Shown: positions 1 through 31,796, numbered from the stretch's first letter. The stretch: 33,522 nt of DNA from an uncultured Clostridia bacterium (GCA_949746285.1 CATJZH010000142.1:1-33522), one strand, 5' to 3'. Made by a program: numbers and translations. Notes: generated by a model from the letters alone, not told the origin.

Positions 1-219
1 ATTATGATGTTTAAATATTATCATTTAACATATTTACAAGAATTAGTTTTTCATATACAATGTAAAAAAATCAAATTGAAGTTATATTTTAAACGTAATG
101 AAATATATTTTAGAAACAGTAAGAATAAATGACCTAATGGTCAGAAAAGAATAAAACTATTGATTTTTTTTATAAAAGAAATTAAAATATTAATGTCTAA
201 GTTATTGGAGGTAAGAACT

Positions 220-6047: not shown

Positions 6048-7241
6048 ATGAGAAATAAAAAAGATAATTTTATAACAACATTGTTAGCCCTAATAATGAT
6101 TATTATTTTTTTATTAACAGTATATTTTTGTTTAGATGTATTTGGAATAATTGAAGTACCCAGCAAGTATAGCTTAGCTTCTTTGTTTTATTCTAAAATA
6201 GAAGTTATAGCTTCAGGAGAGAGTATAACAGAAGATATAACATCAGTATCAGGAAAGAAAAATAAAATTGTAGTAAATAGAGATAATAAAACTTCACCTA
6301 CTTCTTCAGATGTTCAAAATCCTCTAGATCTTTTGAATATTGATGAACAGTCAAATACACAAAGTCAAATAAATTCATATTCTTCAAATAGATTTTATTA
6401 TAATCAATTAGATGAATATGGAAAAACAATATATACAGGATTATATAAAAATATTGGTAATTTAAAAACAGGAACAGCTGTAACAGATTTTGGAATGTCA
6501 TTTAATAGTTTATTACAAGAAGAAGGCGGAAATGAAGTTCTTGGTAATGCATTAGATGGAGCAATAAATGCTTTAGTTCTTGATAATCCAGAACTATTTT
6601 ATATAGACATAACAAAAATGTTTTTATTAACTAATATTACAACAAAACTTTTTTCAACCACATATACAGTTACAATTAGTGGAAATGGTCAAAGTTATTT
6701 AGATGAGGCTTTTAATTCTTCAGAAGAAGTAGATAGAGCAATTGCCCAAGTAGAGAAAGTAAAAGACCAAGTGTTAAAAGATGCAAGAGGGTCAGTAGAA
6801 AATAAAATTAAATTAGTACATGATTATTTAATAGATACTATAGACTATGATTTAAATGCGGGTTCTTCAGTATATGATATTTATGGAGCATTAGTAAATA
6901 GAAGAGTTGTTTGTGAAGGGTATGCAAAAGCATTTAAATATATATTAGATGATTTAGGAATTCCTTGTATAATAGTTTGTGGAACAGGAACAAACAGTTC
7001 AGGAAATACAGAAAGTCATGCTTGGAATTATGTGCAAATAGAAGATAAATGGTATGCTATTGATGTAACTTGGGATGACCCAATAATAACTAATAGTTAT
7101 AGAGGAGAAATTCCAGATAATTTCAAATATGCAAATTATTTAAAAGGATCAGATACATTTTTTAAAAATCATTTAGAAGATGAAACTATGTTAGGTAAAG
7201 TTCCATTAAATTATCCAGTAATAAGCCAAATAGATTATTAA
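6048..7241 (+). CDS. Membrane-anchored transglutaminase-like cysteine protease domain protein
   Basis: N-terminal TM helix; Cys-His-Asp triad motifs VCEGYAKAF, HAWNYV and IDVTWDD. Confidence 0.85.
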   Translation: MRNKKDNFITTLLALIMIIIFLLTVYFCLDVFGIIEVPSKYSLASLFYSKIEVIASGESITEDITSVSGKKNKIVVNRDNKTSPTSSDVQNPLDLLNIDEQSNTQSQINSYSSNRFYYNQLDEYGKTIYTGLYKNIGNLKTGTAVTDFGMSFNSLLQEEGGNEVLGNALDGAINALVLDNPELFYIDITKMFLLTNITTKLFSTTYTVTISGNGQSYLDEAFNSSEEVDRAIAQVEKVKDQVLKDARGSVENKIKLVHDYLIDTIDYDLNAGSSVYDIYGALVNRRVVCEGYAKAFKYILDDLGIPCIIVCGTGTNSSGNTESHAWNYVQIEDKWYAIDVTWDDPIITNSYRGEIPDNFKYANYLKGSDTFFKNHLEDETMLGKVPLNYPVISQIDY

Positions 7242-13025: not shown

Positions 13026-13053
13026 AAAAAAGATGGATTTTTATCCATCTTTT
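13026..13053. terminator. Bidirectional terminator between convergent genes
   Basis: AAAAGATGGAT-TTTT-ATCCATCTTTT with A/T runs on both sides. Confidence 0.8.
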
Positions 13054-14185
13054 AATATTCTTTTTGTCTAAATGTTTCTTCAACTAATAATTTTAATTTA
13101 TCAAATAGCTTTTGAAAGAACTGGAAACCATATGTGTGTTGCTGAGTACTTGATAGTTCTTTAGAAATTGAGTCTAATGTTAATATGTTTCCATACTTTA
13201 ATATAAATTCTTTCTTTTCTTGAACTTGTCTTATTATATCTGCAGAAAAGTCATTATAAAAGTTATAATTTTCTGTATTTATAAGTAAAGATTTAAAATC
13301 GTCTAATTTATATTCAAATTCTTCTACATCTTCTAATGTTCTTACAGAATTTAATTCGCTATTAAAACAATTTAATATAATAGCATTTTGAGTTTCAAGT
13401 GTTTTTTCAAATATAATTTGTTTTAGATTTTCAATTTTTGAATTTATATTTCTAACTTTATTAATACTAGAATTATCTTCTGAACAAATAGATAAATTAT
13501 ATATTTCATTTGAAAGCCTTGATTCATATTCACAAATTAAATCGAAATTCTTTTCTATTTCAGAATAAGCTTTACTACTAGATTTAGCTATAAATGTATT
13601 TTTAAAAATATCATCACTATATAAGGTACTATGATATAGCGGATAAGAACCTGTAAAATAAATCATTTCATTAAGTAAAGCTGTTTGCAATGGATAAAAG
13701 TCGGGACTTTCTGTAGAAAGCTCCATATTATAATATTTTACAGTATCTAGTGGAGAATTTGTTGCAACAGCTGCCATATGTTGAACAGCAGCTTCATTAA
13801 GTGCCATACCATCATCTGCAGTACCTTTCATGTTATAAAGTCCAAGTCTTAATAATTTTCCTCTTTTGTTTTTTACTTCTTGAATAAAATGCAATGATTC
13901 ATGTATAGCTAATGTATTTAAATCTTCTAAATCCATATTTTTACTAAAGTATATAGAATTATTTTTATAGAAATATTTTGCCATAGCCATGTCATTAGGC
14001 ATTTCTGCAATATACATATCTAGCTTTGTAATAGAATCAAATAAATCTTGTTTATCAATATTATGTTCTGGAAAAGCACTAGTTATTTTTTCAGATATAT
14101 TAGAAGCAATTTTATTTATTTCTAATGTATTTAATTTACCAACTATATTTATTCCTTCATTTTTTAATGTAGAACTTATACTCAT
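13052..14185 (-). CDS. Hypothetical protein with a zincin-like HEXXH motif
   Basis: 377-aa ORF with GAGGAG RBS; AIHESLHFIQ plus downstream ALNEAAVQ; no signal peptide. Confidence 0.75.
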   Translation of the reverse strand: MSISSTLKNEGINIVGKLNTLEINKIASNISEKITSAFPEHNIDKQDLFDSITKLDMYIAEMPNDMAMAKYFYKNNSIYFSKNMDLEDLNTLAIHESLHFIQEVKNKRGKLLRLGLYNMKGTADDGMALNEAAVQHMAAVATNSPLDTVKYYNMELSTESPDFYPLQTALLNEMIYFTGSYPLYHSTLYSDDIFKNTFIAKSSSKAYSEIEKNFDLICEYESRLSNEIYNLSICSEDNSSINKVRNINSKIENLKQIIFEKTLETQNAIILNCFNSELNSVRTLEDVEEFEYKLDDFKSLLINTENYNFYNDFSADIIRQVQEKKEFILKYGNILTLDSISKELSSTQQHTYGFQFFQKLFDKLKLLVEETFRQKEY

Positions 14186-14406
14186 AATAACTCCTCAAAT
14201 CTTTAGTATATATAATATTATACAACAAAAAAGCTAAATATAAATATCAACTTTATTAAGAAAGTATTACATTTTAGTTACAAAGCCAATATTTTCAAGT
14301 GTTACTAAAATTTAATATGTAGAAAATAGGTTTATGAAAGTATTATTTTCCGTAGACATATATATATTGAAAAAAAGCTTAAACTCGTGATACTAAAGAA
14401 ATAGAC

Positions 14407-14434
14407 TTGTTTTCGCTTTTTAAAAGAGTATAAT
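14407..14434 (+). promoter_or_regulatory. Sigma-A promoter of the C1A protease gene
   Basis: TTGTTT-16bp-TATAAT. Confidence 0.5.
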
Positions 14435-14467
14435 AGAATTAATTTATATTTGAAAGAGAGTAAAGTG

Positions 14468-16525
14468 ATGAAAAATTTGTTGAAAGTAAGTAAAGAAAAG
14501 TTAACAATTGCAATGTCTACTTTTCTTGCAGGAATAGTTTTGACAGGATCAGTTTTTGCAGCTGATTTTGAATTAGAACTTACAAATGAATTTAAAGAAT
14601 GGAATAAATTATCACCAGAAGAAAAAGAAGTTATAGATATGCCTCAATCTTTTTCGTTTGAGATTCCTAATAGTATATTAAAAAAATATAAAACTCCAAC
14701 TTTAGTAGGAGCGTTAAAAAGAAATGGAAGAGTAAATCTAAAAAATGTTTCTGCAACTACCTCAGATTCAAGATTTAGTTTAGCAGATGATTTAAATATG
14801 AGAGTAGAAAATCAAGAATCAACAAATGAATGTTGGGCTTTTTCTGTAATTAAATCTATGGAAACAAATATAGCTTTAAAAAATGGAGATACTAATTTAA
14901 GAGATTTTTCAGAAAGACATATGGATTATTCATTAATAAAAACTTTTACAGATGGAGAAAATGAAAATTCTTTAAATAGAGAAGCAGGAGATGGTGGATT
15001 ACCTATAATGGGACTTGCATATTTAACAAATGGGCAAGGAGCAATATTGGAAGAATCAATGCCATTTGAAAATAATGCAGATAAGATTTCTTTGGAAAGT
15101 ATAGATAATAAAGAAATTGACACAATTGCAACAGGTTATTCAGTTTTACCAACTATAAGCAAAAGTTATGAAAAAGATAGTAGTGGAAATACAGTATCAG
15201 TTACATACAAAGATGCAAATGGAAAAGTTTTATCAGATGAAGAAGTAGCAGGAATTAGAAATATAATAAAAGAACATCTAATAAACAATGGAGCAATAGC
15301 TGGATTTACAGCAGGGTCAAAAAGTGAATTTTACAATGGTTCTACAATTTTTGCTTCGTCAGCGTATAATTGTAATAATTCATCTACAGTAAGAGACCAT
15401 GCAATAACAATAGTTGGATGGGATGATAATTATTCAAAAGATAATTTTAAAGAAGGTAGAAAACCTTCTAGAGATGGTGCATATATTGTACTAAACTCAT
15501 ATGGAGAAGAAGTATTTGATTTTGGATATGTTTACATATCATATGAAGACTTTTTTATAGAAAGTGAAATATATGGTATAACATCAACATCAAATAAAGA
15601 TTATGATAATTTATATCAACATGACTTCTTCGGAGGAATTTTAAAATTAGGTTCTGCAGGTTCAAATACAGGTTATTATGCTAGTGTTTATGACAGAGAT
15701 CCTTCAAAAACTGAAGTGCTAAATAGTGTAGGAGTTACTGTTTCAGACTATGTAAATTTAGAAATATATGTTAACCCTAAAGGAAATACTTTAAAAGATA
15801 CTGATTTAATTAAAGTTGGAAATACTACATCTGTTTTAGAACCAGGATATCATAGAATAAATATAAATCCTATATATTTAAAAGGAGATACATTTGCAAT
15901 AGTTATAAAACAAACAGCAATACAAGGAGAAAAATTTAATTTTGAAATAGAAGCTAATGTTGCAAATACAGCATATAGCGAAGTAGATTCTGAAAATAAA
16001 AGTTATATTTCATTAGATGGAGAAACTTGGACAAACCTTTCAGCACTGAATGTAGAAGGTGTAGATATGAGTAAGTCAGATGTTTGTATAAAAGGTTTTA
16101 CAACTGAAACAGCAATACCAGAAGCACCATCATCAAATGTATATAAAATTGAAAATGAATATATATTAAATATTAAATATAATAGTTCAAAAGGAGAAGT
16201 ATTAGGAAACATAAAAACAGCCTCAGATGTAACAATATGTGATGATGAAGGAAATGAAATTTTAGACAATAATGAAATTATAAAAACTGGAATGAAATTA
16301 AAATTATCTGATAATTCTGAATATATTTTAATTGTAAGAGGGGATACTAATTGTGATGGAAATTTAACATTGACAGATTTATCTAAATTATTGCTTCATT
16401 ACAATGAAACTAAAGGATTTGAATTAGAAGGAAATGCAGTTAAAGCAGCAGATCTGAATTTTGATGGAAAAATAACACTTACAGATTTATCTCAACTTTT
16501 AGTTTTATATAATTCAATAGATTAA
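14468..16525 (+). CDS. Secreted C1A (papain-like) cysteine protease with lectin-like domain and C-terminal dockerin
   Basis: Signal peptide ending SVFA; QESTNECWAF (Gln/Cys), DHAITIVGWDD (His), NSYG (Asn); YQHD...CIKGFT lectin-like region; two dockerin Ca-binding repeats GDTNCDGNLTLTDL and ADLNFDGKITLTDL. ATG 14468 preferred over TTG 14450. Confidence 0.9.
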   Translation: MKNLLKVSKEKLTIAMSTFLAGIVLTGSVFAADFELELTNEFKEWNKLSPEEKEVIDMPQSFSFEIPNSILKKYKTPTLVGALKRNGRVNLKNVSATTSDSRFSLADDLNMRVENQESTNECWAFSVIKSMETNIALKNGDTNLRDFSERHMDYSLIKTFTDGENENSLNREAGDGGLPIMGLAYLTNGQGAILEESMPFENNADKISLESIDNKEIDTIATGYSVLPTISKSYEKDSSGNTVSVTYKDANGKVLSDEEVAGIRNIIKEHLINNGAIAGFTAGSKSEFYNGSTIFASSAYNCNNSSTVRDHAITIVGWDDNYSKDNFKEGRKPSRDGAYIVLNSYGEEVFDFGYVYISYEDFFIESEIYGITSTSNKDYDNLYQHDFFGGILKLGSAGSNTGYYASVYDRDPSKTEVLNSVGVTVSDYVNLEIYVNPKGNTLKDTDLIKVGNTTSVLEPGYHRININPIYLKGDTFAIVIKQTAIQGEKFNFEIEANVANTAYSEVDSENKSYISLDGETWTNLSALNVEGVDMSKSDVCIKGFTTETAIPEAPSSNVYKIENEYILNIKYNSSKGEVLGNIKTASDVTICDDEGNEILDNNEIIKTGMKLKLSDNSEYILIVRGDTNCDGNLTLTDLSKLLLHYNETKGFELEGNAVKAADLNFDGKITLTDLSQLLVLYNSID

Positions 16526-16565
16526 TTATGTTATTAAAATGTAATAAAAAAAACAAGAAAATTAC

Positions 16566-16594
16566 TTGATTTTTCTAACATAAAAAGTTATACT
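16566..16594 (+). promoter_or_regulatory. Sigma-A promoter of the cohesin-like gene
   Basis: TTGATT-17bp-TATACT, followed by an AAGGAG RBS. Confidence 0.65.
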
Positions 16595-16613
16595 TAAGGA
16601 AAGGAGTGTTCAT

Positions 16614-17384
16614 ATGAAGAAGAAGTTATTAAAAGTTACAATTATAGCACTATTATTAGTAATAATGTATAGCACTATTGCTAATGCATTCAGCTTCACA
16701 GTGTCAATGACACCAAGTAGCTCTAATCTTGATGTGTCTACTGAATTTACTATAATGGTAAAAATAGCTAATTTAGATGTAGGTACAAATGGAATAAATA
16801 CATTATCAGGTACTTTAAATTATGATGAAGATGTATTCGAACCTATAAATGATAGCAGCATAGATGGACAAAATGGATGGCGTCCTACTTATAATGCAGA
16901 AAATAAAAAAATTACATTATTAAAAGAATTATTTGTAAAATCAGAAGAAAATATTTTTACAGTAACTCTTAAAACAAAAGCAGATGTGCCAGACGGAACA
17001 GTTGGAAAAGTAGAATTTGTAGGAATTATGGCTTCTAATAGTGAGAATGATATTACAGCATCTGATATTTCAACTTCAATTACAGTAGGTGGAGATGGGC
17101 AAAGCTCAGCAAATATCACAAATGAAAGAAATTCATCAGCAAATCTTATTATTAGGCCTACAAACAATACAATAGTATCTCCTAATATTAATAATACAGA
17201 AAACAATACAGTAAACAATACTAATACTTATGTACCAGGATATTTAAATCAAGACAATTCAACAGATGAAGATATGCCATATACAGGTATAGAAGATACA
17301 TTGGTTTATTTTGTAGGAGCAGCTATTATATTAGCAATTGTATTTTATATAAAATTTGAAAAAGTAAATAAAGAAATGATGTAA
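16614..17384 (+). CDS. Cell-wall-anchored cohesin-like protein (signal peptide, cohesin-like beta-sandwich, Asn/Thr-rich linker, LPXTG-like MPYTG, TM, basic tail)
   Basis: Signal peptide ending ANA; EFTIMVKIAN...GINTLSGTLNYDEDVFE...IFTVTLKTK cohesin-like pattern; MPYTG at 17274-17288 followed by a hydrophobic helix and a Lys-containing tail. Confidence 0.75.
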   Translation: MKKKLLKVTIIALLLVIMYSTIANAFSFTVSMTPSSSNLDVSTEFTIMVKIANLDVGTNGINTLSGTLNYDEDVFEPINDSSIDGQNGWRPTYNAENKKITLLKELFVKSEENIFTVTLKTKADVPDGTVGKVEFVGIMASNSENDITASDISTSITVGGDGQSSANITNERNSSANLIIRPTNNTIVSPNINNTENNTVNNTNTYVPGYLNQDNSTDEDMPYTGIEDTLVYFVGAAIILAIVFYIKFEKVNKEMM

Positions 17385-17388
17385 TATA

Positions 17389-17424
17389 AAAAAAGAGGCG
17401 ACTAAAAGGTTGCCTCTTTTTTTT
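17389..17424 (+). terminator. Rho-independent terminator
   Basis: AAAAAAGAGGCGAC-loop-GTTGCCTCTTTTTTTT. Confidence 0.88.
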
Positions 17425-23543: not shown

Positions 23544-23700
23544 TTCGACAAAAATGAGAAAAAAACAAGTTGAATTTTATCGAAAAATGATGTATAGTAT
23601 AAAATGCATTTGAAATTTTTCAAGAATAACAAAAATATTACATTTTAATTACAAAAATATATCATTTTCACTTGACTTTTTACTCAAAATGTAATATTCT
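23544..23700 (+). promoter_or_regulatory. ftsAZ promoter region: Spo0A box and two sigma-A promoters
   Basis: TTCGACA at 23544-23550 (reverse complement of the 0A box TGTCGAA); TTGAAT-17-TATAGT (23570-23598); TTGACT-17-TATTCT (23672-23700). Confidence 0.6.
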
Positions 23701-30668: not shown

Positions 30669-31796
30669 ATGAGGAAAATTCATATTAAAATTAAACTTAG
30701 CTTATTTTTAGCTATAATTTTTATGTTACTTTTTGTCACAAAAAGTAATGCTGCACAAGAGTTTACAGAATTAAACAACAGATGTTTTTATATAAAAAAT
30801 GCTTATACAGGTCACTATTTAGATGTTAAAGATGGAATTGCTCAAGGAGGAACTAATGTACAACAATGTCAATATAATGGTTCATATGCACAGAAATGGT
30901 ATATGGTACATTTAGGAAATGGTGAATATATGATATGTAGTGATGTAGGTTCTACAGCTGAAGGAGAATCAGTAAGATTAAATTATTCGTTAGACGTAAG
31001 TAATGGTGTAAATGCTAATGGAACACAGATACATTTATGGAATAGTGTTATGAATGGAATAACTCAAACTTTTTCTTTTACCAAAACACTAAATAATACA
31101 TATATTATTTGGACAAAAGCTAGTAATTATACAAAAGTTGCTAGTTTGTCAGATAATTTATGTTCTGATGGTATAAATGTCCATCAATGGGAATATTCAA
31201 ATCATTCGCATGACCAATGGATTTTTGAACCTGTTTATAAATTTGAAAATATGGGAGTTGCCTATGCAAAGGCAAATTACAATAGAAAAGTAGATGCATA
31301 GCCTATTTTAAATGCTTATAAAGATGAGGAGGCAAACTTTGTTTCTCAATGTTTATTGGCAGGAGGGATACATCAAAATAATAATTGGTATATGAAGAGA
31401 AAAAATACTAATTATCAAACAATAGATACTGGAACTCAATTAAACAATTCTTGGAATACAACGAATTCTTGGATTGACCATACGAAATTTAAAGAAAATT
31501 TTTATGGTGATGGCAGGAAATGTGGATTTTTTAAAGGCTCATATGTATATGATCATCCAAATGTTGTAGGTGATAACGGATTTGGAAAGGGAGATGTTGT
31601 ACAATTTAGTATGTTTTATAATGGATTTATACAGGAGAGTTTCTTTACGTCTTATGTAACATTTGAAGATATTGGAATTTTTAATAATACAAGATATAAA
31701 GAACTATTTACAACTTATACAAATAATACAAATAAATCAGTTAGAAATTTATCTAATACGTATAAGGAATATTATATAGTTTTATATGATTTTTAA
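30669..31796 (+). pseudogene. Secreted ricin-B (beta-trefoil) lectin fused to a degenerate Amidase_6-like domain, interrupted by an in-frame TAG at 31299-31301
   Basis: Signal peptide ending SNA; ricin repeats (LDV...GTNVQQ...AQKW, QTF, HDQW). ORFs 30669 and 31356 share a frame, and the junction reads AYAKANYNRKVDA*PILNAYKDEEANFVSQCLLAGG. Confidence 0.82.

Follow-up and report, generated by a model that had tools for sequence, protein, structure and literature searches.

The stretch of DNA considered here, termed the window throughout, is 33,522 nt of contig C142 from an uncultured Clostridia bacterium. Two genes lie one behind the other on the same strand (+): the first encodes a predicted secreted cysteine protease that ends in a dockerin, and the second a small predicted surface anchor that carries a single cohesin. 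Their open reading frames (ORFs), 14450/14468–16525 and 16614–17384, take up the part of the window described here (14468–17424). The source assembly comprises 1.53 Mb in 192 contigs, is 73% complete and has a G+C content of approximately 25%.

The protease gene (gene A; 14468–16525) encodes 685 amino acids (aa). Translation is taken to begin at the ATG at 14468, because the ribosome-binding site GAAAGAGAG precedes it at a suitable distance, whereas none stands before the TTG at 14450. The N-terminus, MKNLLKVSKEKLTIAMSTFLAGIVLTGSVFA/ADFE, reads by eye as a Sec signal peptide of 31 aa ending VFA/AD (14468–14560). A papain-family catalytic domain follows (14801–15547), which scores 54 bits against the Pfam family Peptidase_C1 (PF00112; cut-off 20.7) over residues 118–366 of the 691-aa frame. 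The catalytic residues Q116, C122, H311 and N343 are invariant in 44/44 aligned homologues, and the motifs NQES..CWAFS, DHAITIVGWD and LNSYG align with the papain-type motifs in an alignment with Cwp84. Family score and catalytic set together place gene A in the papain family (C1A), with proteolysis as its predicted activity. The next domain is Lectin_like (PF18560; 15611–16102) of the Cwp84 type, which reaches 69.9 bits (cut-off 27) and aligns with Cwp84 residues 212–424. Cwp84 (4ci7/4d59) is also the best solved relative of the protease, with an E-value of 9e-26 over the catalytic and lectin-like domains.

The C-terminus of the protease is made up of two further modules. A segment of about 68 aa (16124–16327) stands immediately before the dockerin; it is named the X module by analogy, and it matches no Pfam family at a meaningful E-value. 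It can be aligned with the pre-dockerin segment of most other dockerin proteins in this genome, and poorly with those of C127b and C182. The dockerin itself (16328–16522) contains two calcium-loop repeats, DTNCDGNLTLTD and DLNFDGKITLTD, and matches Dockerin_1 (PF00404; cut-off 22.9) with 27.6 bits in the whole protease and 30.7 bits in the C-terminal piece. Both loops have D or N at positions 1, 3, 5 and 12, and the loop aspartates are invariant across the alignment of 44 homologues. X module and dockerin are referred to together as the X-dockerin.

The anchor gene (gene B; 16614–17384, (+)) encodes 256 aa and belongs to a family represented here by 152 homologues. Its signal peptide reads MKKK...IANA/FSF. 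The cohesin domain that follows (16683–17093) scores 30.4 bits against Pfam Cohesin (PF00963; cut-off 24.1) when residues 24–165 are scanned alone, covering profile positions 11–139 of 139, and a six-frame search of the genome finds Cohesin at 30 bits at the same place in the gene. Individually, 12/43 aligned anchor homologues match the Pfam family. A comparison of the anchor family profile with a profile of six Pfam-positive cohesins from the same genome gives an hhalign probability of 99.3% and an E-value of 9e-21, and a language-model look-up of the anchor returns cohesin clusters (0.92). The sister-cohesin profile weakly reaches solved cohesins, the best being Clostridium perfringens NagJ (2jh2, 2ozn) with an E-value of 0.005. 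Identity between the anchor cohesin and the main cohesin group of the genome is 24–29%. By the curated cut-off, residues 24–165 belong to the cohesin family, and they would be expected to adopt its nine-stranded beta-sandwich fold. Three matches of the anchor family profile among solved structures were set aside as low-complexity or chance.

Beyond the cohesin lies a stalk of 61 aa (17091–17273; residues 160–220), of which 49% is Asn, Thr and Ser (16 Asn in 61 residues); its length and sequence vary among homologues. The C-terminus (17274–17381) has the layout of a sorting signal, with MPYTG at residues 221–225, then IED, a hydrophobic segment and the tail KFEKVNKEMM. In the family alignment the motif takes the form [MIV]P[YKH][TA]G, with G225 invariant and P222 conserved in at least 90% of members. 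Among 1.84 billion cluster representatives, the family profile finds 2110 clusters at an E-value of 1e-3, 1135 at 1e-10 and 102 at 1e-30, and most of the 150 best listed clusters are 220–300 aa in length and match the profile end to end. As a separate observation, three relatives (G011:C20, G059:C18 and G062:C22) carry tandem duplicate anchor genes downstream of the protease position.

An earlier note on this DNA, drawn from the sequence alone, had described a secreted C1A protease with an intact Q/C/H/N set and a C-terminal dockerin, followed by a protein with a signal peptide, a cohesin-like domain, an Asn/Thr-rich stalk and MPYTG. These parts all stand, the cohesin-like domain by the Pfam check that the note had itself proposed; the lectin-like domain and the X module are additions to it.

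Each of the two genes is preceded by a promoter-like element. Upstream of the protease, TTGTTT and TATAAT are separated by 16 nt (14407–14434, (+); a reading of the sequence), and the block CTTGATTT-N-TATAAT/TATACT, located 30–40 nt 5′ of the ribosome-binding site, recurs by eye in most of 32 orthologous upstream regions. Upstream of the anchor, TTGATT and TATACT are separated by 17 nt (16566–16594, (+)), a site that scores 9 of 12 in a promoter scan. The idea that the anchor has its own promoter had been put forward in the earlier note. The scan of the single sequence leaves it at chance level, with 22 promoter-like sites found against 24.4 expected, and it is conservation that upholds it: a TTGnnn-16..18-TAnnnT site is present in 42/42 protease–anchor intergenic regions, taken from pairs with proteins 35–88% identical to the window's anchor. 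The order CTTGATTTTT, approximately 12 nt, TTATACT and then a GGAG ribosome-binding site is likewise found in 42/42, and the promoter block is visible in 14/14 loci that lack the protease.

A further conserved element, TGTTATTAAAATGTAAT (TGTWAY-N5-ATGTAAY; 16529–16545, (+)), is seen before the -35 position in the orthologous intergenic regions. A tandem TGTWAY-N5-WTGTAAY element also stands before the -35 of the divergent gene upstream of the protease (14266–14282), where the strict pattern is present in 38/50 loci and near-variants in the rest. The 17-mer with spacer TAAAA has three copies genome-wide, all on contig C142. Across the genome, the operator-like pattern occurs 16 times, where by our own arithmetic base composition would give roughly 10, and we count it as not enriched. 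The third copy of the 17-mer, TGTAATTAAAATGTAAT, is found at 23637–23653 (-), in the spacer before ftsA.

No terminator-like hairpin was found by pattern scan in the 88-nt spacer between the two genes. Directly after the anchor gene there is an intrinsic-terminator-like hairpin ending in a T run (17388–17423, (+)), with a folding energy of -20.6 kcal/mol and a z-score of -6.95, which none of 200 shuffled sequences equalled. Contigs from four RNA-library runs (three studies) cover 16451–16596 and 16628–17149, that is, most of the anchor gene, with one piece spanning the last 75 nt of the protease gene and running into the spacer. No RNA-library contig in the four runs covers 14200–16419, the body of the protease gene, which is uninformative on expression or relative levels.

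Conservation of the pairing was followed in two sets, one of 49 species-level loci encoding the anchor and one an even sample of 61 genus genomes, including the window's own, in which a protease ortholog was accepted at an E-value of 1e-60 or better. In the first set, a protease with an X-dockerin lies directly upstream of the anchor and on the same strand at 35/49 loci, and one further locus has no upstream DNA. A metagenome scan contributed 13 additional loci. In the genus sample, the anchor is present in 61/61 genomes and the protease in 43/61; in 39 of these 43 the two genes sit side by side on a single contig, and in the remaining four, whose assemblies are fragmented, they are on separate contigs. 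One genome (G006), 99% complete, contains exactly one dockerin match and one cohesin match, these being the protease and the anchor described here, in the same gene order. A lone dockerin beside a lone cohesin is hard to explain unless the two are partners. A second genome (G065; 96% complete) contains two of each, and they form two pairs of neighbouring genes.

The window's own genome repeats the pattern of a dockerin protein followed by a cohesin with a sorting signal three times, on contigs C142, C127 and C84. In one of the other two pairs a 1443-aa leucine-rich repeat (LRR) protein goes with an LPATG anchor; in the other, a cohesin–dockerin adaptor goes with an LPNAG anchor. The dockerin helices of the protease read LTDLSKLLL and LTDLSQLLV, as against ITDLAQLKL in six other dockerins of the genome. 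When a large protein collection was searched with the X-dockerin, 83/85 matches, in proteins of 376–1199 aa, were C1 and/or lectin-like proteases. In one relative (L107; G061:C26, 1885–4563) the plug is missing: the protease stops directly behind the lectin-like domain and has neither X module nor dockerin, and the adjacent anchor, which diverges more than any other among the 61, retains its signal peptide and an MPNTG motif but has a much-altered cohesin region and no Pfam cohesin match (a single case). Together, these observations support the view that the X-dockerin of the protease and the cohesin of the adjacent anchor would form a cognate pair.

A genome-wide census, which the earlier note had suggested, gives nine dockerin matches (all above cut-off), nine cohesin matches (six above cut-off) and nine sortase-domain matches (PF04203, all above cut-off). 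Apart from the dockerins themselves, the nine dockerin-bearing proteins contain F5/8-type-C, LRR and Ig-like domains as well as cohesins. A credible glycoside hydrolase domain is present on 0/9 of them, and no protein with more than two cohesins was found, both in an assembly that is 73% complete. The earlier note had called the clostridium non-cellulolytic, which may be so; the result that bears on it is the count of 0/9. A match to PF12215 (33.1 bits) on one dockerin protein was discounted, having no single matched stretch and falling in Ig-like repeats. Nearer to the pair, the statement that no glycoside hydrolase is nearby is confirmed, with no such family found by Pfam among the 28 window ORFs scanned. 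A cellulosome is marked by dockerins on plant-cell-wall glycoside hydrolases and by multi-cohesin scaffoldins that include a cellulose-binding module, and that is not what this genome presents. Across the genus, dockerins occur in 18/18 sampled genomes and cohesins in 59/60.

From these results it seems probable that the two genes constitute a surface-display module, in which the cohesin of a wall anchor holds an exported protease by its X-dockerin. The signal peptide of the protease would direct the export of this papain-family enzyme, Cwp84-like in its catalytic and lectin-like domains, and its X module and dockerin would bind, with calcium, the single cohesin made by the adjacent gene. The anchor would itself be exported, cut by a sortase at MPYTG and joined to peptidoglycan, with the Asn/Thr-rich stalk spanning the wall and presenting the cohesin outside. 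Since each gene has a conserved promoter, no terminator stands between them and one follows the anchor, transcription of the anchor gene could start at either promoter, and the anchor would probably be produced in excess. The likeliest substrates would be host or dietary proteins, or surface proteins of the cell itself, because S-layer proteins of the CWB2 type were not found. CWB2 repeats (PF04122) are absent from the protease and were found in 0/5 genus genomes, including the window's own, four of the five being 96–99% complete; SLH was found in 1/5. S-layer maturation of the Cwp84 kind was dropped as the leading function on these counts.

Several results weigh against this reading. A Pfam scan of the whole anchor gave no cohesin match, probably because of the Asn/Thr-rich tail, and searches of solved structures with the single anchor sequence and with the family profile found no cohesin. 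The sorting motif differs from canonical LPXTG, the tail FYIKFEKxNKE is at least 90% conserved, which is unusual for a sorting signal that is discarded, and Pfam Gram_pos_anchor is matched by just 3/43 family members. The best NCBIfam match of the anchor reaches 13.9 bits against a cut-off of 47. On the side of the enzyme, 7/7 of the sortases scanned pass a generic sortase model and 0/7 reach a class-specific cut-off. At 13/49 species-level loci no protease separates the anchor from the upstream gene, which adjoins it directly, and 18/61 genus genomes keep the anchor with no detected protease ortholog. Five of these protease-less genomes hold just distant C1-plus-lectin paralogues with other C-termini, and the X-dockerins found in them are all of the ITDLAQLK type. 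Covariation was calculated as mutual information with average-product correction over 40 non-redundant cohesin/X-dockerin pairs; of the top 25 inter-protein pairs, 16 fall in the dockerin part, which makes up 41 of 93 variable X-dockerin columns, and cohesin positions 96–105 recur. This weak signal is not counted as evidence, because one related subgroup drives it. The RNA-library contigs, finally, are compatible with expression and read-through and agree with them without proving transcription.

The alternative that fares best takes the anchor to be a general surface socket, whose main partners would be other X-dockerin proteins (large Ig-like, LRR and F5/8-type-C proteins and adaptor scaffoldins), with the protease as one client or bound to a different cohesin. 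Its strength lies in the wider distribution of the anchor compared with the protease, and in the protease-less genomes, which retain a well-conserved anchor under the same promoter together with X-dockerins of the other type. The nine dockerin and nine cohesin matches of the genome also speak for it, and the cohesin of Sca2, the equivalent protein in R. bromii, bound five different dockerins in vitro according to the available text of PMC4611034. We nevertheless regard this explanation as unlikely: G006 has no other dockerin for its anchor to hold, the other dockerin proteins of the window's genome and of G065 have adjacent anchors of their own, and the dockerin signature of the protease is distinct from the others. 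The anchor is, at the same time, not purely dedicated to the protease, because it is retained in genomes that lack it. The earlier note had suggested that the anchor could serve other dockerin proteins, and this part-survives: the presence of the anchor in all 61 genomes, including the 18 without the protease, means that it may serve other partners too, whereas the X-dockerin type seen here is nearly exclusive to the protease family.

A broader scenario is offered as an unlikely conjecture. The anchor would be a universal core gene of the genus under separate regulation, with the tandem TGTWAY-N5-ATGTAAY element in its promoter, as at the divergent HExxH gene nearby, and the protease–anchor pair would be the ancestral minimal cohesin–dockerin system, with a single plug and socket in each genome, as in G006. 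The protease might then be switched in a regulated manner between bound and released states, and lineages would have swapped its means of attachment among X-dockerin, direct sortase signal, other repeats and none.

In another alternative the pair binds as proposed, yet the anchor is held in the membrane by its C-terminal helix, with no sortase cutting and no linkage to the wall. The departures from a typical sorting signal listed above suit this explanation, in that the motif begins with M, I or V and not L, the segment after it (ED... and the conserved tail) is unlike that of typical discarded signals, and Gram_pos_anchor seldom matches; no sortase gene was found within the window ORFs scanned. 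The core P-x-T/A-G is conserved with its G invariant, however, and a hydrophobic stretch and a basic tail follow the motif, as in the classical layout. With nine sortase-domain matches in the genome, and two sister anchors that carry LPATG and LPNAG, membrane retention appears quite unlikely. That the two proteins do not interact at all, the dockerin being a calcium-binding stabilising tail or binding something else, the protease released and the cohesin-like protein an independent adhesin, draws on the divergence of the cohesin, which matches no solved cohesin, and on the quite different C-termini of paralogous proteases in related genomes (none at all in G061), but is very unlikely given adjacency in 39/43 genomes with none contradicting, the genome whose sole dockerin and sole cohesin are this pair, and mutual binding as the only established role of both module families.

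The proposed display module can be set beside several known systems. Cwp84 of Clostridioides difficile (4ci7, 4d59) and the window's protease share the same catalytic and lectin-like arrangement. CWB2 repeats keep Cwp84 on the wall, where it matures the S-layer precursor; in place of those repeats the window's protease has an X-dockerin, and an S-layer substrate of the Cwp84 type is unlikely here because CWB2 was found in none of the five genomes searched. The NagJ cohesin of C. perfringens, with its dockerin-bearing toxins and glycosidases, is likewise a non-cellulosomal clostridial pairing. Cohesins of the NagJ type sit on enzymes and join enzymes together, whereas the window's cohesin sits on a stalk with a putative sortase signal, and the match to NagJ is weak and belongs to the sister cohesins of the genome rather than to the window's own.

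Closer parallels are found among sortase-anchored single cohesins. ScaE of Ruminococcus flavefaciens is such an anchor (PMC4611034, in the part available), and its partners ScaB, CttA and RflaF_05439 bear an X module plus dockerin, as the protease does here. RflaF_05439 has cysteine-peptidase-like modules (PMC3573020, in the part available); these are NlpC/P60-like, in contrast to the papain C1A domain of the window's protease. ScaE anchors a large cellulosome through scaffoldins, whereas the proposed partner here is one enzyme encoded next door, and the likeness is one of architecture, by description and not by sequence comparison. In the amylosome of R. bromii, Sca2 combines a cohesin with a sortase signal, and in vitro it bound dockerins from a peptidase and from an LRR protein; R. 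bromii, a non-cellulolytic gut Firmicute, further encodes a cysteine protease with a dockerin, which bound only Coh4, and very weakly (both from the available text of PMC4611034). Sca2 is 534 aa long, is concerned mainly with amylases and is not part of a dedicated two-gene unit, whereas the anchor described here is 256 aa and lies beside its protease. The window's anchor may nonetheless accept other dockerins, as Sca2 does in vitro, because genomes without the protease keep the anchor and have X-dockerins of the other type.

In the gut Clostridia of the genus Limousia, cSca5 is a sortase-anchored single-cohesin protein predicted to hold six dockerin peptidases and scaffoldins, and no gene of the genome is more highly expressed than that of cSca5; the same source counts 4333 human-gut metagenome-assembled genomes with both cohesin and dockerin modules (PMC12997984, in the part available). 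The high expression of cSca5 parallels the conserved promoter of the window's anchor. The Limousia 'mucinolysome' is centred on mucin glycosidases and multi-cohesin scaffoldins, which distinguishes it from the present genome and its nine dockerin proteins lacking any credible glycoside hydrolase. In the literature text available, no report was found that joins Cwp84-type proteases with dockerins, and the supplements of PMC4611034 and PMC12997984 may list such proteases; titles and abstract openings of the literature naming Scatovivens contained nothing on the cohesin–dockerin topic.

ScaE, Sca2 and cSca5 show that a sortase-anchored single cohesin with dockerin-bearing peptidases is an arrangement already known. 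By architecture, the window's anchor would be a scaffoldin of the monovalent anchoring type, with one cohesin and a sorting signal, and its partner is suggested by adjacency and by the genome with a single pair. What is new in detail is that some genomes have come down to one plug and one socket, that the pair is conserved across a genus and that the anchor has a conserved, separately controlled promoter. A genus of uncultured gut Clostridia with small genomes appears to use cohesin–dockerin parts for protein display and not for fibre breakdown, and some of its species may have been reduced to one plug-and-socket pair holding one cysteine protease. Such a minimal pair would be a clean natural case for studying the specificity of cohesin–dockerin binding and display by sortases, and engineering could draw on it as a compact display system with two parts. 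A Cwp84-type protease at the surface of a mouse-gut commensal may, in addition, process host or dietary proteins and glycoproteins. The understanding of how cohesin–dockerin systems work is unchanged by the finding.

Other attachment ends occur on related proteases. Paralogous C1-plus-lectin proteases in three relatives, G005, G003 and G001 (L082, L083 and L085), do not share the X-dockerin; of the three scanned, one carries a pair of Big_2 domains plus a direct LPKAG sorting signal, and in the others a Flg_new domain precedes repeats of the form Y..N.D....G......HW...G..EGR that have no Pfam match. Further cohesin–dockerin genes of the window's genome are located at C127 7879–13317, C84 725–2609 and C182 3353–6811 (L078, L080 and L079), and a sortase gene lies directly upstream of a 926-aa cohesin–dockerin protein. 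Contigs C51, C162 and C127 1–1089 (L076, L077 and L078) encode large surface proteins built of repeats of about 85 aa, with the consensus ...TATAKVDWIDK..P.A.ITY...TN..V. These proteins end in a cohesin and/or an X-dockerin, one has an F5/8-type-C domain, and all are cut by contig ends.

The gene on the other side of the protease is divergent (13052–14185, (-)) and encodes a protein of 377 aa with an HExxH motif, found within AIHESLHF, with no signal peptide and no Pfam family. It adjoins the protease, or the anchor directly, in 45/49 loci, and a look-up in the Atlas returned only unnamed clusters and a weak lead to Peptidase_M78. It is possibly co-regulated with the pair, as a neighbour rather than an established part of the system. 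The remaining neighbours are chromosomal housekeeping genes, among them plsX, rnc, addB, alr, murA, ftsQ/A/Z and spoIIGA, together with genes for uracil-DNA glycosylase, a topoisomerase and a sigma factor. Amid them, 6048–7241 (+) encodes a protein with a transglutaminase-like core. A small ricin-type beta-trefoil lectin protein (RicinB_lectin_2, E-value 5e-17) is encoded at 30669–31301 (+), and three ORFs that match no family come after it.

Loci related to the pair come from uncultured Clostridia, several of them Candidatus Scatovivens, in animal and human guts. At least part of the window was present in 20 runs from 10 studies. Among the runs listed, 16 contained 99–100% of its DNA, judged from sampled words, and 14/16 of these are labelled mouse or mouse gut metagenome.

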